Assembly: GCA_965283675.1 (NCBI GenBank)
Contig: CBDIPQ010000005.1
Span: forward strand, 91,196-155,195
Direction of reading: 5' to 3'
DNA from: Caulobacteraceae bacterium
GTDB lineage: Bacteria > Pseudomonadota > Alphaproteobacteria > Caulobacterales > Caulobacteraceae
Length of the DNA stretch: 64,000 nucleotides
The notes under the pieces were generated by a model. The model saw only the letters and a list, made by a program, of their open reading frames with translations, did no database searches and was not told the DNA's origin. Below, in pieces: positions 29,642-62,010 of the stretch. Both the position numbers and the translations under genes were made by a program. The first letter of the stretch is position 1, and each line of letters opens with the position of its first letter.

Positions 29642-29663
29642 GTCGCTTTCGTAAACATACTAA
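29642..29663 (+). promoter_or_regulatory. Cluster-wide operator motif copy
   Basis: GTCGCTTTC GTAAAC ATACTAA in the divergent intergenic region. Confidence 0.7.
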
Positions 29664-29713
29664 TCAAGCGGGACGGCTTGGCAACCGGCTTGCGTTTCTG
29701 GACTGATGGCGTA

Positions 29714-35436: not shown

Positions 35437-35458
35437 TAAGTTTGTTTATGCAAGTGAC
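35437..35458 (-). promoter_or_regulatory. Cluster-wide operator motif copy overlapping a candidate -35
   Basis: GTCACTTGC ATAAAC AAACTTA; contains TTGCAT, followed 17 bp later by TAGCGT (35430-35425) pointing at the NTF2 pair. Confidence 0.72.
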
Positions 35459-36452: not shown

Positions 36453-36483
36453 GGCTTGTCTTAGCGGTCTCGTTGAACGGGAT

Positions 36484-38110
36484 TCAAGCGGTTGAGAGTT
36501 TCTGACGACGAACGGTCAGGCCGGCGGCCTCCCGGTCGAAGGTCTCCGCCGTGATTCCCTCCGCCCTCAGGCCGGTCTTCTGGATCTTGTTGGTGGGGGT
36601 CTTGGGCAGCTCCGCCTCGATCCGCACATAGCGCGGCACCATGAAGTGGGTCATGCGCGGGATCAGATATTCGACCAGCTCCCTCGGATCGATCGTCGCG
36701 CCCGCAACCGGGGCGACGGCGACCATCACCTCCTGTTCCCCGCCCGGCAGGTCGACGCCATAGGCCGCCGCCTCGCGCACGGCGGGGTGGCCGCAGACCT
36801 CGATCTCGATCTCCAGCGACGACATGTTCTCGCCCCGCCGGCGGATCGCGTCCTTCTTGCGGTCGATGAAGAAGAAGCAGCCCTCGGCGTCGCGGCGCAT
36901 CAGGTCGCCGGTGTGGAACCAGCCGTTGCGCCAGGCCTCCGCCGTCGCCTCCGGATCGCCCAGATAGCCGTGGCTCAGGGTCCAGGGGCTGTCCGCGCGG
37001 ATCACCAGTTCGCCGGGCTCGCCGTGCGGAACCTCGTTGTCGAAGGCGTCTACGATGCGGCACTCCATGCCCTCGCGCGCCCGGCCGCAACTGCGCATCA
37101 CCGTCTCGTTGACCGCGCAGATCAGCGGCCCCGAAACCTCGGTCATGTTGAAGCCCGAGATGTAGTCGAAGCCGAACCGCTCGGCGAGCGCGACCGTGTC
37201 CTCGGTGATGGGGGCGAGCGTCACCATGCGCAGCGGATTGTCCCGGTCGTCCGGTCGGGGCGGCTCCTTCATCAGGAAGGCCGTCAGGGCGCCGATCAGG
37301 CCGCTGCACACGGTCAATTCCGTCTCGCGGATCACGTCCCAGAAGCGCCGGGTGTCGAAAGCCTCGAACAGGGCCACGGAACCGCCGCAGGCCACCGCCG
37401 CCGTGATCGCGGCGATGCCGCCGACATGGAACATCGGCAGGTTGACCAGCATCCGGTCGCCGCCGTGCATGTAGCCGTAGGTGACCTTCCCGGTCGTCCA
37501 CTCCTGCACATAGGAGGTCAGCACCGCCTTGGACGGCCCCGTGGTGCCGGAGGTGAAGATGATCACCGGGCTGTCCCACGGATCGGACTCCACCCGCGCA
37601 TAGGCCGCCGCGTCGCCGGCCAGGGCCGTGGCGGGTTCGACCGCGACGCCCAGGTTGACTTGCCCGGTCGCTTCGCCCGTCAGGATCAGTCCGTCGACGG
37701 CGCCCAGCGACAGGCCTTCCAGCCGCCCGACCAGATCGGGGTGCACGATCAGCAGTCGGGCTCCGGTCTTGCCGATCGCATGCTCCAGCAGCTTGCCGCG
37801 GAAGCTGGTGTTGATCGGGGCCAGGGCCGCGCCCGCATAGTTCGCGCCGAACCACGAGCGCACCAGCGCCGCCGAATGGCGTCCAGGCGGCGACGATGTC
37901 GCCCTTCTTCACCCCGCGCGCCTGCAGGGCGGCGGCGGTCTCAAGCGCCTTTCGCCGGGTCTCGGCCCAGGTCCAGGTCTCGCCGGTCTCATAGCGGATG
38001 AACACCTTGTCGGGCGTCTCGGCGGCGTAGCGGTCCAGCAGGCGCGGGATCACGCACTCGTCCGCCGTGGGCGGCGTCGGGTCGAACCAGGGCAGCTTCA
38101 ACCCGCTCAC
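36484..38110 (-). CDS. Acyl-CoA synthetase (CaiC/DitJ-like subfamily); frameshift at about 37877
   Basis: FTSGTTGPSK, GFNMTE, WFHTGD, DRKKDAIRRRGEN; GTGA overlap with the MFS stop. Confidence 0.88.
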
Positions 38111-39489
38111 GAGGCGTCCCTCTGCCATTCCTCCGCCTCATCCACGCTGGCGCGGAAATGGGGCAGGGTCTTGATCAGGATGGCCGAGGCGACGGTGATG
38201 CAGACGCCGCTGACGATGGCCAGGGACACGCCGATATGCTTCGGGCCGCCCAGCAGGCCGTCGCTGATCGCCGCGACGATGGTCGGTCCCCCGGCCAGCG
38301 AGATCAGGTTGCCGATCAGGAAGTAGATGGCCGTGACCTGCGCCCGGAACTGGTTGGGCGACACCGATTGCAGCGAGGTCGCCGGCAGGCTGTTCATCAG
38401 GCCCGCGAAGAAGCTGAAGCCGGCCAGCGAGGCGATGGCCCAGTTCGCGTCAGGCATGAGGGGCGTGGCGATGGCGAAGGGGATGCTGCACACCAGACCG
38501 AAGATGGCGGCGACAAGCGGCGCGTCCTTGCGGCCGCGCGCGGCCAGGAAGTCGCTCAGCCATCCGCCGACCAGGACGCCCGGCGTCGCCGCCAGCAGAA
38601 GCACGGCCCCGTAGGCGAAGCCGACCTGCGAGGCGTTCCAGCCGTGCGTGCGGATCAGCACCGCCGGGATCCACGCCAGGTAGGAGATGCCGGCGATGCC
38701 GAAGATCGAGAAGCCGATGATCATGGCGTAGAAGGTCTTCTTGCGCGCCCACATGAACTTCAGCACGCCGGCGTTCCGGTCGGCCTTGACCAGCCCGTGC
38801 CGGGGCGGCTCGCGCACGATCAAGAACAGGGCGGCGATCAGAAGGCCGGGCAGGCCGACCAGGACGAAGGTCTGCTGCCACGGGGCCAGCGTCCCCAGCA
38901 GCGGCAACTCCATCGTCCCGTGACGGGCGATCATGTCGATCGCGCCGCCGCCGATCATCAGGGCCAGTCCGGCCCCGATGTACGGGCCCATCGAATAGAC
39001 CGCGAGCGCGCGCGCCCGCATGCGCGGCGGGAAATAGTCCGAGATCATCGAATAGGCGGCGGGCGACAGGGCGGCCTCCCCGATGCCGACGCCGACGCGT
39101 GCGGCGAACAGGGCCCAGAAGCTGTTGGCCAGGCCGCAGCCGACGGTCATCACGCTCCAGATGACGATGCCGAAGAAGATGATCCAGCGGCGGCTTCCCC
39201 GGTCGGCCAGCCGGGCCAGGGGCACGCCCATCAGGGTGTAGAACAGCGAGAAGGCCAGACCCGCCAGCAGGCTGAACTGGGTGTCCGAGATGTTCAGGTC
39301 GGCGCGGATCGGCTCGACCAGAAGGCTCAGGATCTGCCGGTCGATGAAGCTGGAGGTATAGGCCACCATCAGGGCCGCGACCGCGAACCAGCCCCACCCG
39401 GGATGGGGCCAGATCCGGGGCTTGGGCGTAGTCGCCGCGACGGGTGTTTCAGGGGACGTCGTACTGGTCATCGGCGAGGTCCGGTCCAT
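38107..39489 (-). CDS. MFS transporter (spinster/aromatic-acid-like)
   Basis: FIDRQILSLL, LADRGSRR, RVGVGIGEAALSPAAYSMISDYFP. Confidence 0.92.
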   Translation of the reverse strand: MDRTSPMTSTTSPETPVAATTPKPRIWPHPGWGWFAVAALMVAYTSSFIDRQILSLLVEPIRADLNISDTQFSLLAGLAFSLFYTLMGVPLARLADRGSRRWIIFFGIVIWSVMTVGCGLANSFWALFAARVGVGIGEAALSPAAYSMISDYFPPRMRARALAVYSMGPYIGAGLALMIGGGAIDMIARHGTMELPLLGTLAPWQQTFVLVGLPGLLIAALFLIVREPPRHGLVKADRNAGVLKFMWARKKTFYAMIIGFSIFGIAGISYLAWIPAVLIRTHGWNASQVGFAYGAVLLLAATPGVLVGGWLSDFLAARGRKDAPLVAAIFGLVCSIPFAIATPLMPDANWAIASLAGFSFFAGLMNSLPATSLQSVSPNQFRAQVTAIYFLIGNLISLAGGPTIVAAISDGLLGGPKHIGVSLAIVSGVCITVASAILIKTLPHFRASVDEAEEWQRDAS

Positions 39490-39492
39490 CAA

Positions 39493-39845: not shown

Positions 39846-42177
39846 GTGACCATTCGAGGTTCCATCAGCGTATCCGCATTGCTTCTGGCCGCATCTCTGG
39901 CGCATCGCCGGCATGGGCCCAGACCGCTCCGCAAACACCGTCGCAGGACACCGCGACCCAGATCGACGACGTCATCGTCACCGCGACCAAGCGGGAAGAG
40001 CGGCTCATCGATGTGCCCGTGGCCGTCACCGCCATCGGCGCGCAGCAGCTTCAGAACTCCGGCGTCTCGGACATCCGCGAACTGACCGGCCTGGCGCCGA
40101 GCGTGCAGTTCCAGACCCCGGGCGGCGGCGCCAACTCGTCGATCCGCATCCGCGGCATCGGCACCACCTCCACCAACCCGGGCCTGGAGTCCTCGGTCGG
40201 CGTGGTGATCGACGGGGTGACCCGCGCCCGCACCGGCGTGGCCCTGTCCGAGCTCGGCGACCTGGAACGGATCGAGGTCCTGCGCGGACCGCAGGGCACC
40301 CTGTTCGGCCGCAACACCTCCTCGGGCCTGATCAACATCGTCACCCGGACGCCCAGCTTCACCGGCGTCGAGGGCCGCCTTGAAGGCACCTACGGCGACT
40401 TCTCCAACATGCGCGTGGCCGGGGCCGTCAATCTGCCCTGTCGGACAACGCCGCCCTGCGGGTGGAGGCCAGTTCGGAAACCCGCGACGGCTTCTATCCG
40501 GACGCCAACAGCCAGGAGACCCTGGACAACCTGGATCGCCAGTTCATCCGCGCCAAGCTGCGCTACGAGCCGACCGACACCCTGCGCTGGATGTTCAGCG
40601 CCGACTACACCAACCGCGAAGAGAACTGCTGCGTCGCGGTGCTGGCCATCGCCGGCCCGACCTACGGCCTGGTGAACAGCCTGTCCGCCGCGCGGGGCCA
40701 GATCGGCTACACCAGCACCAACCCCTTCGACCGGCAGGCGTCCAAGACCGCCGGGCGCGTGAACTCCGAGAACATCGTCGACTGGGGCCTGTCGGCCCAG
40801 GCCGACTGGGACCTCGGCTGGGCCAACCTGACCTCGGTCACGGCCTACCGCAGCTGGGAAGCCTCGCGCTCGCAGGACTTCGACCACTCGGGCGCCGACC
40901 TGGGCTTCTTCGCCCCGGACGGCCTGCACCAGAACTTCGACGTCTTCACCCAGGAACTGCGCCTGCAGGGCACGGCCGGCATGGTCGACTGGCTGGTCGG
41001 GGCCTATTATTCGGATGAGGATGTCCGCAACAACTCCGCCTACCGGATGGGCGCCGACTATCCGCTGATCTACGGCGGCGCGGCCACCTTCCAGGCCACG
41101 ACCCTGGCCGCCTTCACGCCCGGCGACGGCGCGCGGGGCGTGGGCGAGCAGAACGGCCGGGACATCTCGGTCTTCACGCACAACATCTTCAACATCACCG
41201 ACCAGCTCAGCGTCACCGCCGGCCTGCGCTACACCAACAACAAGAAGTCGATCGACTTCTGGGGCCAGAACTTCAACCCCGCCTGCGACAGCGCCGTGGC
41301 GACCGGCGATGCGCCCGGCATCACCCGCTTCTGCGCCCCCTTCTGGGACACGCGGATGAACCCGGCGGGCGACACGGACTCGCGCAGCGAGGACGCCGTC
41401 ACCGGCACCTTCAACGTGGCCTATGAGTTCGCTCCGAACGTGAACGGCTATGTCTCCTATTCGCGGGGCTACAAGTCGGGCGGCTACAATTTCGACCGCG
41501 CCGGCTTCACTACTCCGGCGACGCCGAACGCGCGCGACCTGGCCTTCTCGGAAGAGACGGTGGACGCCTATGAGGTCGGCCTGAAGACCGAGTTCTTCGA
41601 CCGCCGCCTGATCGCCAACATGGCGGTCTTCCACCAGACCTTCTCGGGCTTCCAGCTGATCGAGTACACGGGCGTCAACTTCGTCGTCCGCAGCCTGGAA
41701 GAGGCGGTGTCCAAGGGCGCCGAGATCGAGGTGACCTGGCGGCCGATGGACGGCCTGACGATCACCAACGGCCTCAGCTACACGGACGCCTACTATCCGG
41801 TCAGCCCCGGCAACTCGACCTATTCGGGCCGGGAGATGGAGCAGTCGCCGGACTGGGTGAACGTGACCTCGGTCACCTACGAGTTCCCGATCTCGGGCGA
41901 CCTGACCGGCGTGGCCTATATGGACAACCGCTACAGCTCCGAGTTCTTCACCGGCGGCTTCGATCCGAACCGGGTGCAGGAAGCCTTCTCGGTGGCCAAC
42001 GCCCGCTTCTCGCTGCGGCATGAGGGCGGCGACTGGGCGGTGGACCTGTGGGCCCGCAACGTCTTCGACAAGGATTATTATCGCCGCATCATTCCGGCCA
42101 CGTTCCAGGCCGGTTCGTACTCGGCCTTCCTCGGCGATCCCCGCACCTACGGGATCACCCTGCGCCGGAACTTCTGA
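39846..42177 (+). CDS. TonB-dependent receptor; frameshifts at about 39900 and 40437
   Basis: Signal peptide (SLGASPAWAQ after one G is restored), DDVIVTATKRE, ERIEVLRGPQGTLFGRN, terminal F (YGITLRRNF). Confidence 0.92.
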
Positions 42178-42211: not shown

Positions 42212-42247
42212 GGCCCCGCCGATCCGTCGGCGGGGCCTCTTCTTGTT
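42212..42247. terminator. Intrinsic terminator between convergent receptor and acyl-CoA dehydrogenase genes
   Basis: 11-bp stem GGCCCCGCCGA-TCCG-TCGGCGGGGCC followed by TCTTCTTGTT. Confidence 0.8.
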
Positions 42248-43434
42248 CAGAACCCCATCTGTTTGGCGGCGAGGTCGCGCAGGATCTCCTCGGAGCCGCC
42301 GCCGATGACGAAGATGCGGGCCTCGCGGTAGATGCGCTCGACGCGGTTGTCGCCGGTGTAGGCGCGGCCGCCGAGGACCTGCAGGCTCTCGCGGGCGCAA
42401 TGCTCCAGGGTGGTGGTGGCCTGGACCTTCAGCAGGGCCAGGTCGGCCACCGGCGCCTCGCCGCGCTGGAAGCGCCAGACCAGGATGTCGAGGAAGGCGT
42501 AGGCGGCCTTCAGACGCTGGATCATCTCCACGATCTTGTGGCGCATGGACTGGTGGTCGATCAGCCGCTTGCCGAAGGTCTGGCGCTCGCGGGCGAAGGC
42601 GATGGCTTCGGCGATGCAGGTGCGGGCCATCGCGAGGGTGGCCGAGATGCCGCTGAAGCGCTCGATGTTGAACTGGCTCGCCAGGCCGGCGAAGCCCCGG
42701 TTCTCGACGCCGATCAGGTTGCTGACCGGGACCTCGACGTTCTCGAACTGAAGCCAGCCGTTGTTCTTGTTGTACCACTGCAGGCCGGGGACCGGGCCGC
42801 GGGTCACGCCCGGCCGGTCGGTCTCGATCAGCAGCATGGACAGGCCGCCCATGCCGGGGCCGCCGGTGCGCACGGCGGTCAGCAGGAAGTCGGCCTTCAT
42901 GGCGCCCGAGATCAGGGTCTTGCCGCCGTTGACGACGAAGACGTCGCCGCGGCGTTCGGCCGTGGTGGTGAAGCCCGAGACGTCGGAGCCGCCGCCGGGC
43001 TCGGTGACCGCGAAGGCGATCTTCTTCTGACCTGCCAGCACCGGCCGGGCGACGCGGTCCAGCATCTCGGGCGTTCCGCCGTTGATGATCGGCGGCAGGG
43101 CGATCCAGGGGGTGGCGAGATCGGCGAAGACGACGCCGGAGCCGAGCCGGAAGAACTCCTCGGCGTAGATGATGCGGTGGTAGAGGTCGACGTCCTCGCC
43201 GGTCCCGCCCAGATCCTCGCGGAAGCCCATGCCGGAGATGCCGGCCCTGGCCGCCTCGACATAGAGGCTGTCGGGGAAGTCGGAGGCGGCGTCCCAGTCC
43301 TTCAGGTGGGGCGCGATATGGCTGTCCACGAAGCCGCGCAGCTGGGCCCGCCAGGCGTCGTGCTCGGGCGTCAGGAAGGGGCTGGGCGGCCGCAGGCCGT
43401 CAAAGTCCAGCGCTGGAAACACGTGATCCGCCAT
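42247..43434 (-). CDS. Acyl-CoA dehydrogenase
   Basis: AFAVTEPGGGSD, VNGGKTLISG, RQTFGKRL, IGGGSEEI. Confidence 0.95.
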   Translation of the reverse strand: MADHVFPALDFDGLRPPSPFLTPEHDAWRAQLRGFVDSHIAPHLKDWDAASDFPDSLYVEAARAGISGMGFREDLGGTGEDVDLYHRIIYAEEFFRLGSGVVFADLATPWIALPPIINGGTPEMLDRVARPVLAGQKKIAFAVTEPGGGSDVSGFTTTAERRGDVFVVNGGKTLISGAMKADFLLTAVRTGGPGMGGLSMLLIETDRPGVTRGPVPGLQWYNKNNGWLQFENVEVPVSNLIGVENRGFAGLASQFNIERFSGISATLAMARTCIAEAIAFARERQTFGKRLIDHQSMRHKIVEMIQRLKAAYAFLDILVWRFQRGEAPVADLALLKVQATTTLEHCARESLQVLGGRAYTGDNRVERIYREARIFVIGGGSEEILRDLAAKQMGF

Positions 43435-43467
43435 AGTCCTGTTCTCCCTGTCCGCGCCATTCGCGGC

Positions 43468-43489
43468 GTCGCTTTCGAATTGATACTAA
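43468..43489 (+). promoter_or_regulatory. Cluster-wide operator motif copy
   Basis: GTCGCTTTC GAATTG ATACTAA; 18 of 22 positions identical to the copy at 29642. Confidence 0.75.
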
Positions 43490-43569
43490 AAGCCCTCGCC
43501 AACGACGACAAGGATGGTATTCTAACGCAACCCACTATGTTCCGGGCGAGCGCCCGCAAGGAGTGATCG

Positions 43570-45033
43570 ATGGGCTTTGAACCGTTCAAGGCGACGCTGC
43601 AGCCGAACGAGCATCCCTACATGACCGGCGCCTGGACGCCGCAGCATGAGGAGTTCACGGCCGAGGACATGCCGGTGATCGGGACCATCCCCACCGACAT
43701 CGACGGCGTCTATGTGCGCAACACCGAGAACCCGGTGCATGACCCGATCGGCCGCTATCACCCGTTCGACGGCGACGGGATGATCCACACCATGGTGCTG
43801 CGGGACGGCAAGGCCGCCTATCGCAACCGCTTCGTGCGCACCAAGGGCTTCCTGGCCGAACAGGCGGCGGGACGGGCGCTGTGGGCCGGACTGGCCGAGC
43901 ATCCGTCGCTGTCGGAATTGCCGGGCTGGGGCGCCCGGGGGGCTGAGGATTCGTCCTCGACCGACGTGATCATTCACGCCGGGGCGATCCTTTCGACCTT
44001 CTACCAGTGCGGCGAGGGTTATCGCCTTGATCCCTATACGATGGAGCAGCTGCCCAGCGCCGACTGGTGTCCGCCCGAGGGCATTTCGGCCCACCCCAAG
44101 GTGGACGAGAAGACCGGCGAGCTGCTGTTCTTCAACTACTCCAAGGCCGCGCCGCACATGCACTACGGCGTGGTCGGGCCGGACAACAAGCTGAAGCATT
44201 TCACGCCCGTGCCGCTGCCGGGCGCGCGCCTGCCGCACGACATGGCGTTCACGACCAACTATTCGATCCTCAACGACTTCCCGCTGTTCTGGGAAGAGGA
44301 CCTGCTGCCCAAGGGCATCCACGCGGCGCGGTTCCACGCCGACATGAAGTCGCGCTTCGGCATCATTCCGCGCTTCGGCGGGGCCGAGGACGTGCGCTGG
44401 TTCGAGGCCGACGCGACCTATGTGCTGCACTTCCTGAACGCCTGGGAAGACGGCGACGAGATCGTCATGGACGGCTATTTCCAGGACAATCCGGTGCCGA
44501 AAACCAGCCCGGACGCCTGGCCGGGTCATGAGCGGATCATGACCTTCCTGGACCAGAACATGCTGCAGCCGAAACTGCACCGCTGGCGCTTCAACCTGAA
44601 GACCGGCGCGACGACCGAGCAGCGGCTGGACGACCGGGTGCTGGAGTTCGGCGTCATCAACAACCAGTTCGCCGGCGTGAAGTACAAATACGCCTACAGC
44701 GCCGTGTCCAAGCCCGGCTGGTTCCTGTTCACCGGCCTGGTGAAGCACGACATGGACACGGGCGAGAGCTGGACCGTCGATTTCGGCCCGGAGCGCTACG
44801 GCTCGGAGCCCGGCTTCGCCCCGCGCATCGGCGCGACGGAAGAGGACGACGGCTATCTGATCACCTATGTCACCGACATGATCGAGAACCGGTCGGAGTG
44901 CGTGATCTATGATGCGCGCAAGCCGGCCGAGGGGCCGGTGGCGCGGATCATGCTGCCCGGCCGGATGTCCAGCGGGACCCACGCGACCTGGTCGCAGGGC
45001 GAAACCATCCGCGCCTCTCAGGCGGCGGCGTAA
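43570..45033 (+). CDS. Carotenoid-cleavage-oxygenase (RPE65/CCO) family dioxygenase 1
   Basis: RNTENP, HPFDGDGM, YRNRFV; four iron-ligand His motifs SAHPK, PHDM, VLHF, GTHATW. Confidence 0.93.
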   Translation: MGFEPFKATLQPNEHPYMTGAWTPQHEEFTAEDMPVIGTIPTDIDGVYVRNTENPVHDPIGRYHPFDGDGMIHTMVLRDGKAAYRNRFVRTKGFLAEQAAGRALWAGLAEHPSLSELPGWGARGAEDSSSTDVIIHAGAILSTFYQCGEGYRLDPYTMEQLPSADWCPPEGISAHPKVDEKTGELLFFNYSKAAPHMHYGVVGPDNKLKHFTPVPLPGARLPHDMAFTTNYSILNDFPLFWEEDLLPKGIHAARFHADMKSRFGIIPRFGGAEDVRWFEADATYVLHFLNAWEDGDEIVMDGYFQDNPVPKTSPDAWPGHERIMTFLDQNMLQPKLHRWRFNLKTGATTEQRLDDRVLEFGVINNQFAGVKYKYAYSAVSKPGWFLFTGLVKHDMDTGESWTVDFGPERYGSEPGFAPRIGATEEDDGYLITYVTDMIENRSECVIYDARKPAEGPVARIMLPGRMSSGTHATWSQGETIRASQAAA

Positions 45034-45045
45034 GGGAGCGAAGCC

Positions 45046-46263
45046 ATGACCTACATCCTGGGCGGCTGGCAGTCGGACTTCGCGCGCAACTACGCCCGCG
45101 AGGGACTGGAGATCGGCGACGGCTTCGCGGAGGCCGTGCACGGCGCCCTGGCGGAGACGGGACTGGATCCGGAGGACATCGAGGTCGGCCACGTCGGCAA
45201 TTTCGTCGGCGACCTGTTCACGGGCCAGGGCATGCTGGGCGGCTTCTTCGCCATGGCGGACGAGCGGTTCACCGGCATGCCCGCGTCGCGCCATGAAGCG
45301 GCCTGCGCCTCGGGCAGCCTGGCCGTGCTGGCCGCCGCCGCCGACATCGAGGCGGGCCGCTACGGCACGGCGATGGTGCTGGGCATGGAGATGATGCGGA
45401 ATGTGCCGGGCGTGACGGCGGCCGAGCACCTGGGCGCCGCCGCCTGGGCCGGGCACGAGTATCTGGACGCGACCTATCCGTGGCCGCGCGCCTTCTCGGA
45501 CCTGACCGAGGAATACGATCGCCGCTACGGCATCGACGAACAGCATCTGCGCCGGATCGCGCAGGTCAATTTCGCCAACGCCAAGAACAACAAAAACGCC
45601 CAAACCAGAAAATACGAATTCACCGCCGCCAGCTTCAGCAATGATGACGAGGCCAATCCGGTGATCGAGGGGCGGGTGCGCAAGACCGACTGCGGTCAGG
45701 TGACGGACGGCGCCGCCGCCATCATCCTGGCCTCGCCGGAACGGGCCGCCGAATATGCGAAGGCGCGGGGCGTTCCGCTGGAGAGCCTGCCGCGCATCAA
45801 GGGCTGGGGCCACCGCTGCGCGCCGATCGACTATGGCCGCAAGATCAAGGCCAGCGAGGGGCAGCCCTATGTCTTCCCGCAGGTGAAGCGGGCCATCGAC
45901 GACGCCCGCGCCCGGGCCGGTCTGGACCTGTCGGGCATCGATGCGGTGGAGACCCACGACTGCTTCTCGATGACCGAGTACATGGCCATCGACCATCTGG
46001 GCCTGACCGCGCCGGGCGAGAGCTGGAAGGCGATCGAGGCGGGCGACATCGAGATGGGCGGCCGGCTGCCGATCAACCCGTCCGGCGGCCTGATCGGCTG
46101 CGGTCACCCGGTCGGGGCGACCGGGGTGCGAATGGCGCTGGACGCCTTCAAGCAGACGACCGGAACCGCGGGCGACATGCAGGTCGAGGGCGCGCGCAAT
46201 GTGCAGACGCTGAACATCGGCGGCTCGACCACGACGACGGTGAGCCTGGTGATCGGGACCTGA
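45046..46263 (+). CDS. SCP2-type thiolase / acetyl-CoA acetyltransferase
   Basis: RHEAACASG, VETHDCF, NPSGGLIGCGHPVGATG, NIGGS. Confidence 0.9.
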   Translation: MTYILGGWQSDFARNYAREGLEIGDGFAEAVHGALAETGLDPEDIEVGHVGNFVGDLFTGQGMLGGFFAMADERFTGMPASRHEAACASGSLAVLAAAADIEAGRYGTAMVLGMEMMRNVPGVTAAEHLGAAAWAGHEYLDATYPWPRAFSDLTEEYDRRYGIDEQHLRRIAQVNFANAKNNKNAQTRKYEFTAASFSNDDEANPVIEGRVRKTDCGQVTDGAAAIILASPERAAEYAKARGVPLESLPRIKGWGHRCAPIDYGRKIKASEGQPYVFPQVKRAIDDARARAGLDLSGIDAVETHDCFSMTEYMAIDHLGLTAPGESWKAIEAGDIEMGGRLPINPSGGLIGCGHPVGATGVRMALDAFKQTTGTAGDMQVEGARNVQTLNIGGSTTTTVSLVIGT

Positions 46264-46267
46264 CGGC

Positions 46268-46308
46268 CGGACGGTCGTAAACACCGTCCGAAGCGTCCGA
46301 AGCGTCCG
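46268..46308. repeat. Hairpin plus short tandem repeat after the thiolase
   Basis: CGGACGGT-N7-ACCGTCCG, then GTCCGAAGC x2.5. Confidence 0.5.
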
Positions 46309-46388: not shown

Positions 46389-47347
46389 TCAAAATCGTCC
46401 TGGTCTGCCAGCAGACGGCGGCAAAGGACGCCTGATGCTGCTGCTCAGGCCCAGCAGTCCCGACGTCGGAGCCGCCCCGACGATCACGAGAGGAACGCCG
46501 CCGAGGTCCATCACCGTCTCACCGATCTCGGCGCTTGGCGGATAAAGAACGGACGGTCCCACGATCCACGGAGAATGGGCCACATCCATCACCATGTCGC
46601 GCGTGGCCGTCCTAATCCGCACGGCATGGGGCCGGGCCGGCAGGAAACGGCATGTCGCCGGGCCGAGATCGGGACGGGGCAATACCACGCTGAGCAGGTT
46701 CTCGCCGACGCTGGGAACGCACATCGCCGTCTCGCGGATCGTTTCGGCAAAGCGCGTTTCGACCTCTTCGATGGTGCAGTTCAAGCCTCCCTCGCCGCGC
46801 AATGACGCGAAGCGCGCACGGAACGCCTCGGTCGAGAGGCGCGCCCCAATGCTGTGAAGCCGGAACTCCTGTCCCTTGGCCGGGCGGCGAGGCGAACGCC
46901 GCACCGTCGTGACGCCTTCCCGACGTTCGATCTCCATGACGATAGGCCGTGCGCCATGTCGCTGCCCCTGCCATCCGGCGAGGGTGAGGTATAGGCCGTG
47001 CTTATCGACCGCCGCGGAAGCCAACCCCTTGATCGCGTGTTCAAGATGGGCCGCGGCCTGGCCGATATCGCGAAGAACAGGCGCCGGGCCGAAACTCTTC
47101 GCGGGCCGCTTCCCGTCGGGGCCGCGAGGTATGGGGCCGCCCCATAAGTCCCGGCGATCCAGTCATCCATCGGCACATCACCGACATAGGCGACGCCGGA
47201 ATAGCCGATCGACACCAGCGCATCCCTGGCGCGGTAGACGATGGTCTTGTTGGACATGACGTCGTGGGGGGCAGGCCCCACCGTAACGAGACGGTCGCTG
47301 ACCTGGACTACATAGATCGGGCACATGGCCGTGAGGACAAGCGTCAT
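46389..47347 (-). CDS. Orphan protein with proteasome-beta/Ntn-hydrolase-like N-terminus; frameshift at about 47150-47152
   Basis: MTLVL...SDRL...NK gives T1/D17/K33 after Met removal; one extra G joins ORF 46781-47347 to the frame of ORF 46389-47024. Confidence 0.6.
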
Positions 47348-47492: not shown

Positions 47493-47975
47493 TCAGCGGG
47501 GAGAGCGGATCGACACCCCGACCGTGCCTTGCGCGATGACGAGGCCGTCGGGGGTGCTGATGGTCGCCTCGACCACGGCCTTGCGGGCGTCGTGGAAGGT
47601 CACCCGGCCGACCGTCTCCAGCCGGGCGCAGTCCATCGGGGCGGCGTTGAGGAAGCGCATCGACAGGTCGGTGGTCAGCAGGGTCTGGCCGGGCTCGAGA
47701 ATGGTCATGACGGCGCTGCCGCCCGCGACGTCCACCAGCGAGGCCAGGACCCCGCCGTGAACCAGACCCACGAAATTGGCGTGGCCGGGATCGAGATCGC
47801 AGACGATGCGGACCAGCCCTTCTTCGAACTCGACCGGCCAGGCGCCGAGCCGCTGCGGATAGCCGCCGACCGTGTCCGCCTTGCGCGCCCAGCGGCGCAG
47901 CAGTTCGAGGCCGGAAACGGTCGGGTCGAGCTCGAAGTCGACAGGCGCGACAACTCTGGCCGGAGCGGAGGTCAC
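47493..47975 (-). CDS. PaaI-family thioesterase (hotdog fold)
   Basis: HANFVGLVHGGVLASLVDVAGG, LTTDLSMRFL. Confidence 0.92.
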   Translation of the reverse strand: MTSAPARVVAPVDFELDPTVSGLELLRRWARKADTVGGYPQRLGAWPVEFEEGLVRIVCDLDPGHANFVGLVHGGVLASLVDVAGGSAVMTILEPGQTLLTTDLSMRFLNAAPMDCARLETVGRVTFHDARKAVVEATISTPDGLVIAQGTVGVSIRSPR

Positions 47976-48925
47976 GCCGCGGCCCCTTGTATCCGGCGGG
48001 CGCCCGTGCGGGTCTGGAAGCGGGCGATGGCGGCGTCGTATTCGCCGGACAGCTGGTCGACGATCTTGCTGACCGGCTCGACGGCGCGGACGGCCTCAAG
48101 CCCCTGGCCGGCGGCCCAGATATCGCGCCAGCGCTTGGTCGAGCCGCCCGAGGTGTAGTTGCGGTCCGGGGCGGCGCCGAGGTTGTCGGGATCCTGGCCG
48201 GCGGCCAGCAGGCTGGGGCGCAGCCACGAGGCCGGGGTGCCGGTGACCGAGGCGGAGACGACCAGATCGTCGGGACCCGCGTCCACGACCATCTGCTTGT
48301 ACTCCGGCTGGGCCATGCTCTCTTCGGAGGCCAGGAAGCGCGTCCCCATGTAGACGAAGTCCGCGCCCGCCGCGACGGCGCCGGCCACGCCCGCCCCATC
48401 GCCGATCCCGCCGCCGACCGCGATATAGCCGTCGAAGAAGTCGCGCACCGCCGAGATGAAGGCGAAGGGCGACAGGTGGCCGGTGTGGCCGCCGGCGCCG
48501 GCGCTGACGCAGGCCAGGCCGTCAACGCCCGCCTCGGCCGCCTTCTTCGCCAGCTTCATCGAGACGACGTCGGCGAAGACCAGGCCGCCGTAGCCCTTGA
48601 CCGTCTCCATGACCGGCTTCGGAGATCCGAGGGCGGTGATCACGACCGGCGGCTTGTATTCGGCGATCAGGCGCAGGTCCTCAGGGAGCCGGGCGTTGGT
48701 CGAGTGGGTGATCATGTTGGCGATCCACGGGGCGTCGCCCGGCTTCAGCGCGTCGGTGATCGTGCCCATCCACGCATCCAGGTCCTCGACCGTGCGGCAG
48801 TTGGGGGTGGGGAAGGCCCCGCCCACGCCGGCCCTGCAGGCGGCGATGACCAGTTCCGGCCCGCTGATCAGGAACATGGGCGCCGCGAATACGGGCAGGC
48901 GCAGGGTGTCGAAGGGGGAGGTCAT
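47972..48925 (-). CDS. Nitronate monooxygenase / FabK-like FMN oxidoreductase
   Basis: AAPMFLISG, AGAGGHTG, GGIGDG, YMGTRF; ATGA overlap fixes the start at 48925. Confidence 0.9.
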   Translation of the reverse strand: MTSPFDTLRLPVFAAPMFLISGPELVIAACRAGVGGAFPTPNCRTVEDLDAWMGTITDALKPGDAPWIANMITHSTNARLPEDLRLIAEYKPPVVITALGSPKPVMETVKGYGGLVFADVVSMKLAKKAAEAGVDGLACVSAGAGGHTGHLSPFAFISAVRDFFDGYIAVGGGIGDGAGVAGAVAAGADFVYMGTRFLASEESMAQPEYKQMVVDAGPDDLVVSASVTGTPASWLRPSLLAAGQDPDNLGAAPDRNYTSGGSTKRWRDIWAAGQGLEAVRAVEPVSKIVDQLSGEYDAAIARFQTRTGARRIQGAAA

Positions 48926-50640
48926 GCGGACAGGGTCTCGGTGGTGACGCGTTGGCGCAGATCCCGCTTGAGGATCTTGCCGACTGGATTGCGGGGGAGG
49001 GCCTCGATGGTCTCGAGGCGTTCGATCTGCTTGTAGACGGCGACCTGGCGGTCGCCGGTCAGGAAGGCGTTGATCTCGGCCAGGGTCGCTTGCTGGCCGG
49101 GACGGAAGACGACGAAGGCCGCGAGCCGCTCGCCCAGATTGGGATCCGGTGCGCCGACGACGGCGGCCTCGGCGACGGCGGGGTGGGCCATCAGGTGGTT
49201 CTCGATCTCCTCGGAGGAGATGTTCATGCCGCCGCGGATGATGATGTCCTTCAGCCGGCCGACGAATTTCAGGTGCTGCCTGCGGTCGCCGGCCAGCTCG
49301 AACAGGTCGCCGGTGCGGAACCAGCCGTCGGCGTCGAAGGCGCGGGCGTTGATCTCGGGCGCGCGCCAGTAGCCGGAGAAGATGGTGGCGCCCTTGACCC
49401 GCAGCTCGCCGGGCAGGCCGGCGTCGGTGATCTCCTGTTCGGTCTCGGGATCGACCAGGCGGGTGAAGATGCGGTCGTGCAGCTTGCAGGCCCATGTGAA
49501 GCCCTCGCCGAGGCGGGGGAACAGGCTGGCGCGGTCGGCGGCCTCGGGCAGGTCCTTCAGCGCCGACGGGAAGGAGGCCCCCTCGTTGGAGCCGAAATAG
49601 TTGACGATCTGGACCCCGTATTTTTCGTGGAAGGTCCGCACCATCCACTCCGACAGGGGCGCTGAGCCCGAGCCGATGGACTTCAGCCGCTTGAAGTCGA
49701 TGCCCTCCAGCAGGGCTTCGTTCTGGAGGAGCAGGTTCAGCACGGCGGGCGGGGCGACGGTGTAGTCGATCCTCTCGTCGCGCATCTGTTTGAGCAGGAC
49801 CTGCAGGTCGAACGGATGGTGCTGGATCAGCACCCCGCCGAGCAGCAGCCAGCCGATGAAGGCGGTGGAGATGCCGCCCATGTTGACCATCGGGAAGGGG
49901 TTCAGCAGGCGCGCGCCGGGGGCCAGGTCGGCGGCGTCGATGACGCCGTCGCCCATGATGATCCATTCGTTGTGGCTGCGCGGCACGCCCTTGGGCTGGG
50001 CCTCGGTGCCGGAGGTCCAGCAGATGGTGACGATGTCATCGGCGGTGATGGCCGCAGCCTTCGCCGCCTTCTGCGCGGCCTTGTGCTGGTCGCGGGTGAC
50101 GCCGTCCATCAAGGGCTCGAGGTCGAGACCGCCCTCGGGGCAGGTCTGGCCCAGGACGAAGACGGTCTTCAGGGTCGGGCAGGTCGCCTTGAGGCCGACG
50201 ATCATCTCGCCGTGCATCTGCTTGCCGATGCGGTCGTTGGTGATGGCGGCGACGGCGTCGGTCTGGCCGATGATGTAGCCCAGCTCGTGCTCGCGGTACT
50301 GGACCGGGGCGGGGCTGACGATGATCCCCAGCCGCAGGCAGGCCAGGTAGCTGATGGTCAGCTCGGCGATGTTGGGCAGCTGGACCACGACCACGTCGTC
50401 CTTGCGGATTCCATGGGCGGTCAGGACGGCGCAGAGGCGATCGACCGCGTCGGCGGTCTGGCGCCAGGTCAGGCGCTCGGCGGTCCCGCCGACGAAGTCC
50501 GGGGCGTTGAACGGATCGACCAGGGCCTCGGCGTCCGGATGGGCCTTCACATGCTTCTGGAACAGGTCGTCCAGGGTGACGTCGCCCCACCAGCCACGGG
50601 CCTTCATCTCGCGGATGCGGTGTTCGGGAATGACGATCAT
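48922..50640 (-). CDS. Acyl-CoA synthetase (cyclohexanecarboxylate/2,3-DHB-ligase-like)
   Basis: WTSGTEAQPKG, FGSNEG, WFRTGD, GRLKDIIIRGGMNI. Confidence 0.92.
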   Translation of the reverse strand: MIVIPEHRIREMKARGWWGDVTLDDLFQKHVKAHPDAEALVDPFNAPDFVGGTAERLTWRQTADAVDRLCAVLTAHGIRKDDVVVVQLPNIAELTISYLACLRLGIIVSPAPVQYREHELGYIIGQTDAVAAITNDRIGKQMHGEMIVGLKATCPTLKTVFVLGQTCPEGGLDLEPLMDGVTRDQHKAAQKAAKAAAITADDIVTICWTSGTEAQPKGVPRSHNEWIIMGDGVIDAADLAPGARLLNPFPMVNMGGISTAFIGWLLLGGVLIQHHPFDLQVLLKQMRDERIDYTVAPPAVLNLLLQNEALLEGIDFKRLKSIGSGSAPLSEWMVRTFHEKYGVQIVNYFGSNEGASFPSALKDLPEAADRASLFPRLGEGFTWACKLHDRIFTRLVDPETEQEITDAGLPGELRVKGATIFSGYWRAPEINARAFDADGWFRTGDLFELAGDRRQHLKFVGRLKDIIIRGGMNISSEEIENHLMAHPAVAEAAVVGAPDPNLGERLAAFVVFRPGQQATLAEINAFLTGDRQVAVYKQIERLETIEALPRNPVGKILKRDLRQRVTTETLSA

Positions 50641-52127
50641 GGGCGGACCTCCACGGCGAGATTGGCGTCGGGATAGAGCAGGCTGCGGACCTCGCCGCGC
50701 ACCACCTTGCCGACCGGGTTGCGGGGCAGGGCGGGCATGAGGTGCAGGCGTTTGGGCGTGCGGACGGGGCCGATGGCCTCGCGCACGAAGGCGCGGATGG
50801 CGGCGTCGTCAACGAAGCGGGCGTCGACGGCCACGGCGGCCTCCAGGCGCTCACCCCAGACGTCGTCGGGCAGGCCGAAGGCGCAGGCCTCGCGCACCGC
50901 CGGGTGGGCGTTCAGGGCGGCCTCGACCTCGCCGGGATAGACGTTGTAGCCGCCGGTGATGATCAGCTCCTTGGAACGGCCGATCAGGGTCAGGCGGCCG
51001 TCGGGGCCGATACGGCCGATGTCGCCGGTCTTCAGCCAGCCGTCGTGCCGGGTCGCCGCGGTCAGCTCGGGCGCGTCCAGGTATTCGGTGCGGGCCAGGT
51101 CGCCGCCGACCACCACCTCGCCTTCGCCGCGTGACAGCACCTGGCCCTCGCGGGTCAGCAGGCCGACGGGCGTGCCGGGGAAGGGACGGCCGACGGAGCC
51201 GCGCAGGTCAGGGTCAGCCATGTCGGCGGGGTTCTGGCCGGTGATGGCCATCGGCGCTTCGGTCTGGCCGTAGAGGGCCGACAGCACCGGGCCGAAGCGG
51301 CAGACCGCCTGGGCGATGCGGCCCGGCGACATGGGGGCGGCGGAATAGGTCAGGTGGCGCAGGCGCGGGAAGTCTTCGGGCCGGAAGTCGGTCTCGCCCA
51401 TCATCAGGGCGATCAGGGTGGGCGGCATGAAGACGACGGTGGTCCGGCGCTTCAGCTCATCGAGGATGGCGGCGCGGTCGGGCGTGGCCAGCAGGACGTG
51501 CGATCCGCCCGCCGCCAGCACCGGCAGGATGTAGTGGGACGAGCCGTGGGTCAGGGGCGCGACGGCCAGGTTCACGTCGTCGGCGGTGAAGTCGTAGAAG
51601 CCCTGCAGCGAGCGGAGGGCCGCCGCGCCGCTGGCCTGGGACTGGACCACGCCCTTGGGCACGCCGGTGGAGCCGCCGGTGAACTTCAGCGCGAAGGGGG
51701 CGGCCGGGTCGTCGAGGATCGCGGGCGGGGCGGCGTCGGGCAGGCTGTCCAGCCAGGCCTCGAGCGGCAGGGGGCGGGCGGTGGAGCCCAGCGCGCCGAC
51801 CGAGCCGACATCATGCAGGGTGAGAGCCAGGCTCGCGCGGCGCTGGAAGTCGCCATTCAGGCCTGCGCCGTTGCGGGGATTGAGCGGCGTCCACACCGCG
51901 TTGGCGCGCAGGATGGCGAGGTAGGCGACGACGTGGCGCCAGCTGTTGGCGGCGCACAGGCCGACGCGGTCGCCGGGCTGGATCCCGCGCGCGGTCAGGT
52001 CGGCGGCGGCGCGCTCGACCAGGGGGATCAGTTCGCCGTGGGTCAGGACCGTGTCGCCGTCGAACACGGCGGAGCGACCGGCCTTGGCGGCGGCGTTCTC
52101 GTAGAGGGCGCGGATCGGATGGGTCAT
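50637..52127 (-). CDS. Acyl-CoA synthetase (fatty-acid-CoA-ligase-like)
   Basis: FTGGSTGVPKG, YGQTE, WLKTGD, GRSKELIITGGYNVYP; ATGA overlap gives start 52127. Confidence 0.92.
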   Translation of the reverse strand: MTHPIRALYENAAAKAGRSAVFDGDTVLTHGELIPLVERAAADLTARGIQPGDRVGLCAANSWRHVVAYLAILRANAVWTPLNPRNGAGLNGDFQRRASLALTLHDVGSVGALGSTARPLPLEAWLDSLPDAAPPAILDDPAAPFALKFTGGSTGVPKGVVQSQASGAAALRSLQGFYDFTADDVNLAVAPLTHGSSHYILPVLAAGGSHVLLATPDRAAILDELKRRTTVVFMPPTLIALMMGETDFRPEDFPRLRHLTYSAAPMSPGRIAQAVCRFGPVLSALYGQTEAPMAITGQNPADMADPDLRGSVGRPFPGTPVGLLTREGQVLSRGEGEVVVGGDLARTEYLDAPELTAATRHDGWLKTGDIGRIGPDGRLTLIGRSKELIITGGYNVYPGEVEAALNAHPAVREACAFGLPDDVWGERLEAAVAVDARFVDDAAIRAFVREAIGPVRTPKRLHLMPALPRNPVGKVVRGEVRSLLYPDANLAVEVRP

Positions 52128-53353
52128 GCGGCCCGGCCTTCCAGGACGGTGACGACGGTGGCCGCCTCCTCGACGCCGAGGAAGCCGCCGCCGTTCTCGG
52201 CCACGGCGATGCGGGCGTCTCCGACCTGCCGCGCTCCGGCCTCGCCGCGCAGCTGGGTGGTCAGTTCGAACAACTGGGCGAGGCCCGTGGCGCCGACGGG
52301 ATGGCCCTTGGCGACGAGACCGCCGGAGGGGTTCACGGGTGTTCTGCCGCCCAGCGCGAAGTCGCCGGCCGCCGCGCGGGCGCCGACGGTTCCGGGTTCG
52401 GCGAGGCCCAGGTTCTCGATCTGCTGGAGCTCGGCGTAGCTGGTGGCGTCGTGGACCTCGGCCAGATCGATGTCCTGGGGGGCGACGCCCGCCTGTTCGT
52501 AGGCCGCCAGGGCGGCGCGGCGACCGATGTGGTTGTCGAAGTCGCGGGCGTCGCGAGCCCCGGCGCCGGCCAGGACGCAGCCCCGAATACGGACCGCGCG
52601 GGCCTCGCCGCCCAGCCGCTTGAGACCGCGCGCGGAGCAGACGACGGCGGCGGCGGCGCCGTCGCTGACCGGGGCGCACATGGCGCGGGTGAAGGGGAAC
52701 ACGATGGGCTTGTCGGCCAGCACCTGCTCCGCCGTCATCGGCGTGCGGTACTGGGAGCGGGGATTGTGCTGCGCCGCCGTGTGGTTCTTGGCCGCCAGCT
52801 GGGCGAGGTCGAGCTGGGTCGAGCCGAAGCGAGCCATGTGGGCGCGGGCCTGGGCGGCGTACAGGTCCATGAACAGGCTGCGGCCGTCCTCGGGAGCGTC
52901 TCCGCCCATGGCGCGGATGTAGTCGAGCACGCCCGCGCGATCGTGGATGTCCGTACCGCCGGCGAAAGCGGCCGCGACGCGGTCCGGGCGGTCGGGGAAG
53001 ACCATCTTCTCGACCCCGACGACGAGGGCGATGTCGCCCGCCCCGGCGCGGAGCCAGTGGACGGCCTGGAGCAGGGCGGTCGAGCCGGAGGCGCAGGCGT
53101 TCTCGACGTTGACGACGGGGACGCCGGTCAGACCGAGCGGACGCAGGGCGATCTGGCCGCGCACCGTGTTCTGACCCTCCAGCATGGGCTGGCGGGTGTT
53201 GGAGAACCAGGCCGCCTCGATGTCGGCGACGGTCGCGCCCGCGTCGGTCAGGGCCTCGGCGACGGCCTCGGCGGTCAGCGACTTGACGCTGTCGTCCGGC
53301 CGCTTGCCGAAGGCGGTCATGGAGACACCGGCGAGGAAGACGTCGTCGCTCAT
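52124..53353 (-). CDS. SCP2-type thiolase family protein
   Basis: NVENACASG, EVHDA, NPSGGLVAKGHPVGATG, ENGGG; ATGA overlap gives start 53353. Confidence 0.9.
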   Translation of the reverse strand: MSDDVFLAGVSMTAFGKRPDDSVKSLTAEAVAEALTDAGATVADIEAAWFSNTRQPMLEGQNTVRGQIALRPLGLTGVPVVNVENACASGSTALLQAVHWLRAGAGDIALVVGVEKMVFPDRPDRVAAAFAGGTDIHDRAGVLDYIRAMGGDAPEDGRSLFMDLYAAQARAHMARFGSTQLDLAQLAAKNHTAAQHNPRSQYRTPMTAEQVLADKPIVFPFTRAMCAPVSDGAAAAVVCSARGLKRLGGEARAVRIRGCVLAGAGARDARDFDNHIGRRAALAAYEQAGVAPQDIDLAEVHDATSYAELQQIENLGLAEPGTVGARAAAGDFALGGRTPVNPSGGLVAKGHPVGATGLAQLFELTTQLRGEAGARQVGDARIAVAENGGGFLGVEEAATVVTVLEGRAA

Positions 53354-57673: not shown

Positions 57674-57712
57674 GGTTCGGCTCCTTGGGTCTTGAAATGC
57701 AATCTGCTCTTG

Positions 57713-57734
57713 CCGGTCCGTTTGTGCAAGTCAT
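57713..57734 (-). promoter_or_regulatory. Cluster-wide operator motif copy
   Basis: ATGACTTGC ACAAAC GGACCGG, 40 bp upstream of dioxygenase 2. Confidence 0.62.
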
Positions 57735-58645: not shown

Positions 58646-58654
58646 CCGCCCCTC

Positions 58655-58676
58655 CATGCTTGCGTAAAAAGACTTG
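58655..58676 (+). promoter_or_regulatory. Cluster-wide operator motif copy
   Basis: CATGCTTGC GTAAAA AGACTTG in the divergent SDR/receptor gap. Confidence 0.55.
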
Positions 58677-58681
58677 CAAAC

Positions 58682-58703
58682 TTGGTCCGTTGGCGCAAGT
58701 TAC
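58682..58703 (-). promoter_or_regulatory. Cluster-wide operator motif copy
   Basis: GTAACTTGC GCCAAC GGACCAA, inverted relative to the copy at 58655. Confidence 0.65.
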
Positions 58704-61920: not shown

Positions 61921-62010
61921 GAGCCCTCGTTTCAATCCTGCTTCGGACCCTGTCTAGCACTCCGGACACTAAATCGCAGGTCCGGTGACGCAAGGGCGTG
62001 ATCAGGGCGA

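Follow-up and report, generated by a model that had tools for sequence, protein, structure and literature searches.

A carotenoid-cleavage-oxygenase-family gene and an SCP2-type thiolase gene form a conserved pair in Caulobacteraceae and mycobacteria

Rv0913c is one of two putative carotenoid oxygenases in Mycobacterium tuberculosis (PMC5133782). Its neighbor Rv0914c appears in the searchable literature as a thiolase-like gene in expression and association screens, as list entries only. A gene pair resembling these two is analyzed here in a 64,000-nucleotide stretch of DNA from a Caulobacteraceae bacterium (assembly GCA_965283675.1, contig CBDIPQ010000005.1, positions 91,196 to 155,195 of the forward strand). 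The whole stretch is termed the window, and all coordinates are those of the window. The two genes, termed CCO1 and THL1, encode a predicted carotenoid-cleavage oxygenase (CCO) family protein and a predicted thiolase. They form a conserved two-gene module whose linkage is kept despite differing gene order. No paper describing a CCO-thiolase pairing, CCO-initiated bacterial beta-oxidation or mycobacterial CCO operons was found in the searchable literature.

Several described enzymes are related to the two proteins. Plant CCD1 (PDB 9m6z), maize VP14 (3npe), Synechocystis ACO (2biw), MtCCO Rv0654 and Novosphingobium NACOX1 share the PF03055 domain and a four-His iron site with CCO1. The lignostilbene-alpha,beta-dioxygenases LsdA (6ojr), NOV1 (5j53) and NOV2 (5v2d) have the family, the fold and a bacterial catabolic setting in common with it. 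On the thiolase side, the SCP2 type comprises the thiolases that act on branched (2-methyl) chains in peroxisomal beta-oxidation. Ltp2 and Sal belong to the same superfamily as THL1 and act beside a dedicated partner protein in lipid catabolism. An HDCF loop in place of NEAF defines SCP2-type thiolases and supplies the acid/base Cys (PMC7682436, PMC12329534); in Ltp2 and Sal the nucleophilic Cys is lost and the motifs are YDHF or YDCY (PMC12329534).

The gene pair and its mycobacterial orthologues

The features of the pair are as follows; the last three, and a CCO1 ribosome-binding site AAGGAG at 43558-43563, were read from the sequence.

43570-45033, plus strand: CCO1, predicted non-haem-iron alkene dioxygenase of the carotenoid-cleavage-oxygenase family, 487 amino acids (aa), assigned as the Rv0913c orthologue
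45046-46263, plus strand: THL1, predicted stand-alone SCP2-type (HDCF) thiolase, 405 aa, assigned as the Rv0914c orthologue
45033-45038, plus strand: ribosome-binding site AGGGAG of THL1, overlapping the CCO1 stop codon TAA (45031-45033)
46269-46289, plus strand: hairpin GGACGGT(N7)ACCGTCC just past the THL1 stop codon, a possible terminator
43435-43569, no strand assigned: divergent intergenic region between an acyl-CoA dehydrogenase gene and CCO1

Both open reading frames are intact and lie on the same strand, with a gap of 12 nucleotides (nt) and a ribosome-binding site for each. The proportion of G + C at the third codon position is 0.91 in the two genes, as in neighboring genes. Co-transcription of CCO1 and THL1 is judged from sequence features alone. 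THL1 has relatives of 80-93% identity named Brevundimonas, and the source of the window is a Brevundimonas-like alphaproteobacterium.

A sequence-only reading of the window had noted a likeness to Rv0913c/Rv0914c in a set of short segments. All of these are present, namely ILGGWQSDFARN, RHEAACASG and EYDRRYG in THL1 and GWGAR, DSSSTDV and FYQCG in CCO1. The M. tuberculosis counterparts read ILGGYQSDFARN, RHEAACASG, EYDRRYG, GWGARG..DASSTDV and FYQCG, and the resemblance is therefore real. Over the full length, THL1 is 52% identical to the M. tuberculosis thiolase (412 aa) and CCO1 is 54% identical to the M. tuberculosis CCO (502 aa), with the same catalytic residues, HDCF included; the next-best paralogues in the window reach 31% (thiolase) and 39% (the second CCO, termed CCO2).

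Both genes of the window and their mycobacterial counterparts are mutual best matches in the reciprocal comparison that the sequence-only reading had suggested. The forward genome-wide search covered Mycolicibacterium peregrinum and M. vanbaalenii, and the reverse tblastn search of the window's genome used M. decipiens and M. peregrinum proteins. In the reverse direction THL1 scores 370-382 bits and CCO1 523-531 bits, compared with 117-134 and 317-333 bits for the paralogues. The homologies of the pair have E-values of 1e-120 to 1e-190, which rules out chance. The best match of THL1 (54-56%) in M. peregrinum and M. vanbaalenii adjoins that of CCO1 (55-58%); the reading frames overlap by 4 bp, and a gene for a tandem HxlR regulator is next. 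Neither the thiolase gene nor a CCO1-type gene was found in Mycolicibacter algericus and Nocardia vermiculata.

Thiolases of 412 aa from genomes named M. tuberculosis (P0405, P0418, P0420, P0424) were reached with the M. decipiens thiolase as query. One M. tuberculosis contig has, in this order, TacT, TacA, BCCT (593), PE (99), PPE (423), the thiolase (412) and RPE65 (502), and these are followed, after further genes, by glyoxalase (257), Polyketide_cyc2 (144), MT0933 antitoxin (59) and a P-type ATPase (797). TacT is Rv0919 (PMC10407107). The layout is that of Rv0919 to Rv0908, betP and ctpE included, with the thiolase and CCO genes on the same strand and 1 nt apart. Counted down from TacT along what we take to be the gene order and sizes of H37Rv, the pair is Rv0914c and Rv0913c, a placement made because of the identity of TacT and the gene order.

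Judged by these matches, CCO1 and THL1 are orthologues of Rv0913c and Rv0914c. The two genes are directly adjacent and on the same strand in both organisms, but the order is thiolase then CCO in mycobacteria and CCO then thiolase in the window. The M. tuberculosis locus also differs in its PE/PPE and betP neighbors and has none of the uptake, ligase and dehydrogenase genes of the window; M. decipiens has the order betP, PE, PPE, thiolase, CCO. Because the M. tuberculosis genes are functionally uncharacterized, the match names orthologues and supplies no function.

Family membership and catalytic residues

CCO1 matches the Pfam family PF03055 (RPE65/CCO) with 406.9 bits against a gathering threshold of 27, and residues 23-475 align to profile positions 2-468 of 469. 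The four predicted His ligands of the iron are found in AHPK, PHDMA, LHFLNAWE and GTHATW. They are invariant in 22 of 22 members of the clade and align with the His columns of CCD1, VP14 and NOV2. The best matches among solved structures are plant CCD1 (224 bits) and VP14 (182 bits), followed by the lignostilbene dioxygenases together with NOV2 (∼162 bits) and by ACO (∼149 bits).

In the lignostilbene dioxygenases, the lysine of an ALKE segment binds the 4-hydroxyl group of the substrate. This segment of NOV2 (LLALKED) is aligned with ILSTFYQCG of CCO1, and an FYQCG-like motif is found throughout the clade. As CCD1 and VP14 match best and the 4-hydroxyl-binding lysine is replaced by FYQCG, the alignments suggest that CCO1 is on the carotenoid rather than the stilbene side of the family. 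CCO1 also misses the cut-offs of the hidden Markov models for lignostilbene-alpha,beta-dioxygenase (216.5 bits against 800 for NF053778 and 195.7 against 650 for NF053780). The clade is distinct from described carotenoid enzymes as well: residues 110-169 of CCO1 (GWGAR..DSSSTDV..FYQCG) fail to align with CCD1, and in two mycobacterial genomes with the pair the other CCOs, among them presumably the Rv0654 type, are just 33-36% identical to CCO1.

THL1 matches the Pfam domains Thiolase_N and Thiolase_C_1 and is the sole protein of its genome above the cut-off of NCBIfam model NF004936/PRK06289 (642.7 bits, cut-off 375). The predicted catalytic set consists of the nucleophilic Cys (RHEAACASG), HDCF and the GHP His (GHPVGATG), and is invariant in 19 of 19 orthologues, which come from both phyla. 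THDCF (residues 303-307) is aligned with the HDCF of 4bi9. The CxG Cys is lacking, and NIGGS is found in its place. The best structure matches are the trypanosomatid type-2 SCP2-thiolases 4bi9 and 3zbg (∼148 bits); these and the thiolase domain of vertebrate SCPx (6hsj, 106 bits) have HDCF, the Cys and the GHP His and no CxG Cys, as in THL1, but are only ∼30% identical to it. THL1 further differs in that it has no fused SCP2 domain and belongs to a separate bacterial group, NF004936/PRK06289.

A role of THL1 as a steroid aldolase of the Ltp2/Sal type was considered and excluded: the Cys and HDCF are retained, there is no DUF35 or hydratase partner, and Ltp2 (6ok1) matches with 57 bits. A search of the whole genome of the window for DUF35 (PF01796) gave zero matches. 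With the catalytic set kept and no DUF35 gene, THL1 is, by its predicted residues, a stand-alone thiolase of the SCP2 type with complete catalytic equipment rather than an aldolase of the Ltp2/Sal type.

The THL1 family is small. Among 1.84 billion cluster representatives searched there are 299 matches at E ≤ 1e-30, and about nine full-length clusters at 50% identity lie above 315 bits. Some relatives of 45-46% identity are still found in a trio of CCO, SCP2-type thiolase and classical thiolase (L228). In two other loci (L223 at 4958-6223, and L224) a 45%-identical relative lies between a 3-hydroxyacyl-CoA dehydrogenase and a hexapeptide acyltransferase in a glycosyltransferase/aminosugar cluster, where it probably makes acetoacetyl-CoA for 3-hydroxybutyryl sugar decoration.

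Distribution of the pair and the surrounding island

The occurrence of the pair was surveyed in two phyla, with even, random samples of 400 genomes each from Pseudomonadota and Actinomycetota. The two genes co-occur and are adjacent in Actinomycetota and at least two classes of Pseudomonadota. The fixed partnership that the sequence-only reading had proposed is thus borne out: the thiolase clade is never without the CCO clade in the sets examined, and the gene order is inverted between lineages. In the Pseudomonadota sample five genomes have the thiolase and all five have a CCO1-type gene, within 2 kb in three, at 10.8 kb in one and at 170 kb in one (G240). The 11 thiolase-positive genomes of the Actinomycetota sample (12 with the centre genome) are all CCO1-positive; the genes are within 2.2 kb of each other in 12 of 12 and directly adjacent in 11 of 12. 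In this sample the order is thiolase then CCO in nine genomes and CCO then thiolase in two. Either gene is present in just 1-3% of the sampled genomes, with complete overlap on the thiolase side. Fisher tests give p = 7e-10 (Pseudomonadota) and 3e-17 (Actinomycetota), values that ignore shared ancestry and read as "far from independent" only. Pairwise distances in the CCO and thiolase families are correlated (r = 0.80 over 19 genomes).

Among mycobacterial loci retrieved with the M. peregrinum thiolase, the CCO gene is directly downstream in 80 of 80. A tandem HxlR regulator follows the pair in the majority of fast-growing species and in no named slow grower. For Alphaproteobacteria, 80 loci with a THL1 orthologue (67-93% identical) were compared:

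28 of 80 loci: CCO immediately precedes the thiolase, both on one strand (in Brevundimonas and Hyphomonadaceae; the stop and start codons overlap in some)
16 of 80 loci: CCO 1-4.4 kb from the thiolase (Sphingomonadales, with a TonB-dependent receptor gene and an MFS gene between)
21 of 80 loci: CCO absent from at least 4.5 kb to either side
15 of 80 loci: flank too short for a CCO call

All 21 genomes with the far-apart arrangement (Caulobacterales and Sphingomonadales) still have a CCO1 orthologue, 59-66% identical, and in several the CCO gene is apparently ∼6-12 kb from the thiolase gene, if both are on one contig. Five Brevundimonas genomes without the thiolase have no CCO of any kind either.

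By its predicted gene content, the window from ∼28.6 to 64 kb is a lipid-catabolic island. Its main features, assigned from Pfam domains, are:

35511-36452, minus strand: tandem HxlR-type regulator with two HxlR domains
38107-39492, minus strand: MFS transporter (PF07690)
40013-42177, plus strand: TonB-dependent receptor (PF00593)
42247-43434, minus strand: acyl-CoA dehydrogenase (Acyl-CoA_dh N, M and C domains), divergent from CCO1
47493-47975, minus strand: PaaI-type thioesterase
47972-48925, minus strand: NMO-family FMN oxidoreductase
48922-50640 and 50637-52127, minus strand: two acyl-CoA ligases
52124-53353, minus strand: THL2, second SCP2-type thiolase (Thiolase_C_1), ∼31% identical to the Rv0914c type
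53350-55044, minus strand: aldehyde dehydrogenase (PF00171), a candidate for CCO aldehyde products
55047-56195, minus strand: THL3, classical (CxG-type) thiolase (Thiolase_N and Thiolase_C)
56204-57673, minus strand: CCO2 (PF03055, 420 bits), 43% identical to CCO1, first gene of an eight-gene operon
57731-58657, minus strand: short-chain dehydrogenase
58760-60958, plus strand: second TonB-dependent receptor
60955-61935, minus strand: second tandem HxlR regulator

The translationally coupled eight-gene operon comprises CCO2, THL3, the aldehyde dehydrogenase, THL2, the two CoA ligases, the NMO oxidoreductase and the PaaI thioesterase; in the last four (47493-52127) each start codon overlaps the preceding stop codon. 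THL2 scores 183 bits against NF004936, under the cut-off, and the 39% identity to the M. tuberculosis CCO given above is that of CCO2. The island also has further CoA ligases, short-chain dehydrogenases, NTF2/LEH-like proteins, a DUF1295 reductase-like protein and a DapB-like oxidoreductase.

Several of these genes accompany the pair elsewhere. A gene like THL3 directly follows the THL1 orthologue in five distant genomes (L211, L212, L213, L215, L228), and in these the trio of CCO, SCP2-type thiolase and classical thiolase recurs. L213 has HxlR and receptor genes, followed by NMO, CCO, ligase, THL1 and classical thiolase, with the NMO, ligase, CCO1 and THL1 orthologues in one operon. In L218 nearly the whole gene set of the island clusters with the CCO1 and THL1 orthologues. 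The genes that cluster with the pair in these two loci are those for the NMO oxidoreductase, CoA ligase, short-chain dehydrogenase, DUF1295, LEH-like, HxlR and TonB-dependent receptor proteins. In Sphingomonadales the genes between CCO and thiolase are again MFS and TonB-dependent receptor genes (L042, L050, L055, L082). The HxlR protein at 35511-36452 has a 31%-identical counterpart right after the thiolase-CCO pair in fast-growing mycobacteria (L126 at 8202-9191, L127, L129-L140), and two-domain HxlR proteins appear to mark such islands in both phyla. The acyl-CoA dehydrogenase is a conserved neighbor in close Brevundimonas relatives only (86-94% identical, L007-L028).

A 1-nt gap near 40439, in a C-run where the window has CCC and the related Brevundimonas L007 and L010 have CCCC (blastn), splits the receptor at 40013-42177 over two frames. 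Either the sequence has a homopolymer error here or the gene has recently become a pseudogene. An acyl-CoA ligase also changes frame, its N-terminus lying in the reading frame 36461-38128 and the remainder in 36484-37863; this second apparent frameshift in the island hints at assembly errors.

Possible regulatory sequences are found at several places. Operator-like sites of the form CTTGC..GGTCCGTT..GCAAG at 57709-57730 and 58673-58699 flank the short-chain dehydrogenase gene, which places copies upstream of CCO2 and of the second TonB-dependent receptor, and may represent a candidate HxlR operator. GCAAGT-like half-sites occur near 35450, 39510 and 62020. As an operator shared with CCO1 the motif was rejected: it is absent upstream of CCO1, and two matches are not above chance by count. 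A different motif in the CCO1 promoter, GTCGCTTTCG(N5-6)ATACTAA at 43468-43492, was found as a shared 11-mer and recurs at 29642-29666, in the divergent region between a short-chain dehydrogenase gene and a DapB-like gene 14 kb from CCO1. The shared GTCGCTTTCG..ATACTAA motif could be a regulatory site that ties the two modules together.

Downstream of the pair, homology to the related Brevundimonas L007 and L010 (blastn) ends at 46258, the end of THL1. The segment 46264-47492 has a weaker coding signal (third-position G + C ∼0.75-0.80) and an open reading frame at 46781-47347 that has no Pfam match; in L007 the PaaI gene ends ∼350 bp beyond the thiolase match. The segment looks like a strain-specific insertion.

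A side observation concerns the public genomes. An IS6110 primer sequence matches contigs of 1.3-1.6 kb, about the length of IS6110, in L087, L090, L103, L109 and L110, which are assemblies of Nocardia, Lentibacillus, Bacillus subtilis and Streptomyces; other such contigs, from several more genera, are 0.5-1.8 kb long. These short contigs look like contaminating DNA of the M. tuberculosis complex.

Proposed pathway and alternatives

The sequence-only reading had also expected the richer context of the window to reveal the function of the mycobacterial genes. This held in part: a type of pathway is suggested, but the gene context does not identify the substrate. With a probability of roughly 0.6, the orthologous, conserved CCO1-THL1 module is the specific core of a route by which a lipophilic, methyl-branched and unsaturated compound is broken down. 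The route is drawn from family knowledge and gene context; with receptors, CoA ligases, an aldehyde dehydrogenase, an acyl-CoA dehydrogenase, CCO2 and a classical thiolase nearby, oxidative cleavage and then CoA-dependent beta-oxidation are suggested. The substrate would be an apocarotenoid-like polyene or other isoprenoid lipid, imported by the TonB-dependent receptors and the MFS transporter. Using O2, the CCO would cut a C=C bond and release an aldehyde or ketone; the aldehyde dehydrogenase and CoA ligases would turn the fragment into an acyl-CoA, and beta-oxidation would shorten the chain. The SCP2-type thiolase would remove propionyl-CoA from 2-methyl-3-oxoacyl-CoA intermediates and the recurrently co-located classical thiolase acetyl-CoA from unbranched positions. 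Breakdown of an isoprenoid or polyene chain requires such an alternation. The tandem HxlR regulators probably control the genes. In mycobacteria just the two specific enzymes are clustered, joined in fast growers by the regulator; the other steps would fall to housekeeping beta-oxidation enzymes.

Several points weigh against this catabolic route. There is no direct substrate-product link from the CCO to the thiolase, and at least four intervening reactions have to be assumed; no enoyl-CoA hydratase was identified in the island by Pfam annotation. CCO1 scores 237.7 bits against NF052295 (8'-apo-carotenoid 13,14-dioxygenase), which has a cut-off of 675, and is below the cut-off for all three characterized CCO equivalogs matched in NCBIfam; because its scores are far under every such cut-off, a specificity for carotenoids is no more than a guess. 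Carotenoids are not made by M. tuberculosis (PMC5133782), and for neither protein does the searchable literature give a substrate, a product or expression data in any organism. As for the partnership, the Fisher tests take no account of shared ancestry, and a CCO1-type gene occurs without the thiolase in six sampled genomes (G144, G315, G466, G655, G706, G739), so the dependence is one-way, of thiolase on CCO. Other thiolase relatives of 45-46% identity stand in unrelated contexts, such as a sugar-modification cluster.

Four other explanations were weighed. The pair might serve the catabolism of aromatic alkenes, with the CCO acting like a lignostilbene or isoeugenol dioxygenase on a plant stilbenoid or phenylpropenoid and the thiolase taking part in CoA-dependent shortening of the side chain. 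The lignostilbene dioxygenases and NOV2 are among the solved relatives of CCO1 at ∼162 bits, the island has a PaaI-type thioesterase, several aryl-type CoA ligases and an aldehyde dehydrogenase, and the hosts are soil and water bacteria. Still, this is unlikely: carotenoid enzymes score above the lignostilbene ones, the lignostilbene models are missed (216 and 196 bits against 800 and 650), throughout the clade FYQCG stands in place of the lysine of ALKE in NOV2, and the pair is kept in the host-restricted M. tuberculosis. Synthesis of a signal or cofactor, in which the CCO would make a retinal- or hormone-like apocarotenoid and the thiolase would handle an acyl group for an unrelated step, is highly improbable, as the surrounding uptake receptors, CoA ligases, dehydrogenases and thiolases are a catabolic signature. 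No opsin or carotenoid-synthesis family was found among the open reading frames of the window scanned with Pfam, which cover 28.6-64 kb, the first 28 kb being outside the scan. On its side are the many characterized CCOs that are biosynthetic, for retinal, abscisic acid and strigolactone precursors (PMC5133782), and the 45%-identical thiolase relative in a biosynthetic sugar-acylation cluster.

Two further explanations bear on the adjacency of the genes. In a physical complex CCO and thiolase would act on one CoA-bound substrate; the CCO might cleave an unsaturated acyl-CoA that the thiolase holds or delivers, or the thiolase might itself condense or cleave the carbonyl product, and no separate dehydrogenase or ligase would be needed. 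In mycobacteria (4-bp overlap), Hyphomonadaceae (0-3 nt) and L228 the stop codon of the first gene overlaps or adjoins the start codon of the second; adjacency survives the inversion of gene order; the thiolase clade depends on the CCO and the reverse is untrue; and the minimal mycobacterial operon consists of these two enzymes alone. Other SCP2-type thiolases work with DUF35, HMG-CoA synthase or hydratase partners (PMC12329534), and the genome of the window is without DUF35. A complex is nevertheless improbable, given that many Caulobacter and Phenylobacterium genomes have 6-12 kb between the genes, that G240 has 170 kb, and that THL1 keeps the full, ordinary thiolytic catalytic set. The closest solved relatives, the trypanosomatid type-2 SCP2-thiolases, were deposited without a partner chain; these enzymes act as free-standing dimers. 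That the adjacency is meaningless, a generic beta-oxidation thiolase lying beside a CCO, is strongly disfavored. Lipid-degrading bacteria commonly carry thiolases as well as CCOs, and of the 65 informative alphaproteobacterial loci 21 have no CCO within 4.5 kb. Against this, co-occurrence is complete in every set examined, co-absence is seen within a genus, adjacency is found in two phyla with different gene orders, and full thiolase-side overlap is found for genes each carried by only 1-3% of sampled genomes.

The catabolic route itself can be taken further, at much lower confidence. The pair might be the signature of a widespread, undescribed assimilation of carotenoid-like, retinoid-like or isoprenoid polyenes, with the M. 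tuberculosis pair a remnant that would consume a polyene lipid of the host, for instance a metabolite of vitamin A or carotenoids, and the two proteins possibly forming one complex on a CoA-bound substrate; this is a tentative and rather doubtful extension.

Both proteins are clear members of known enzyme families, in uncharacterized clades, and the CCO-thiolase pair is a conserved, undescribed module built from known enzyme types. Rv0913c and Rv0914c, whose function had been unassigned in the searchable literature, belong to this cross-phylum module. In free-living Alphaproteobacteria the module lies inside a full catabolic island, and Caulobacter vibrioides has a thiolase 73% identical to THL1 (L035) together with a CCO1 orthologue. 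What has been an annotation problem thereby becomes testable in Caulobacter, Brevundimonas and fast-growing Mycolicibacterium. The module may represent a bacterial route for degrading carotenoid-like or isoprenoid polyenes, of a kind for which there is no description in the searchable literature.

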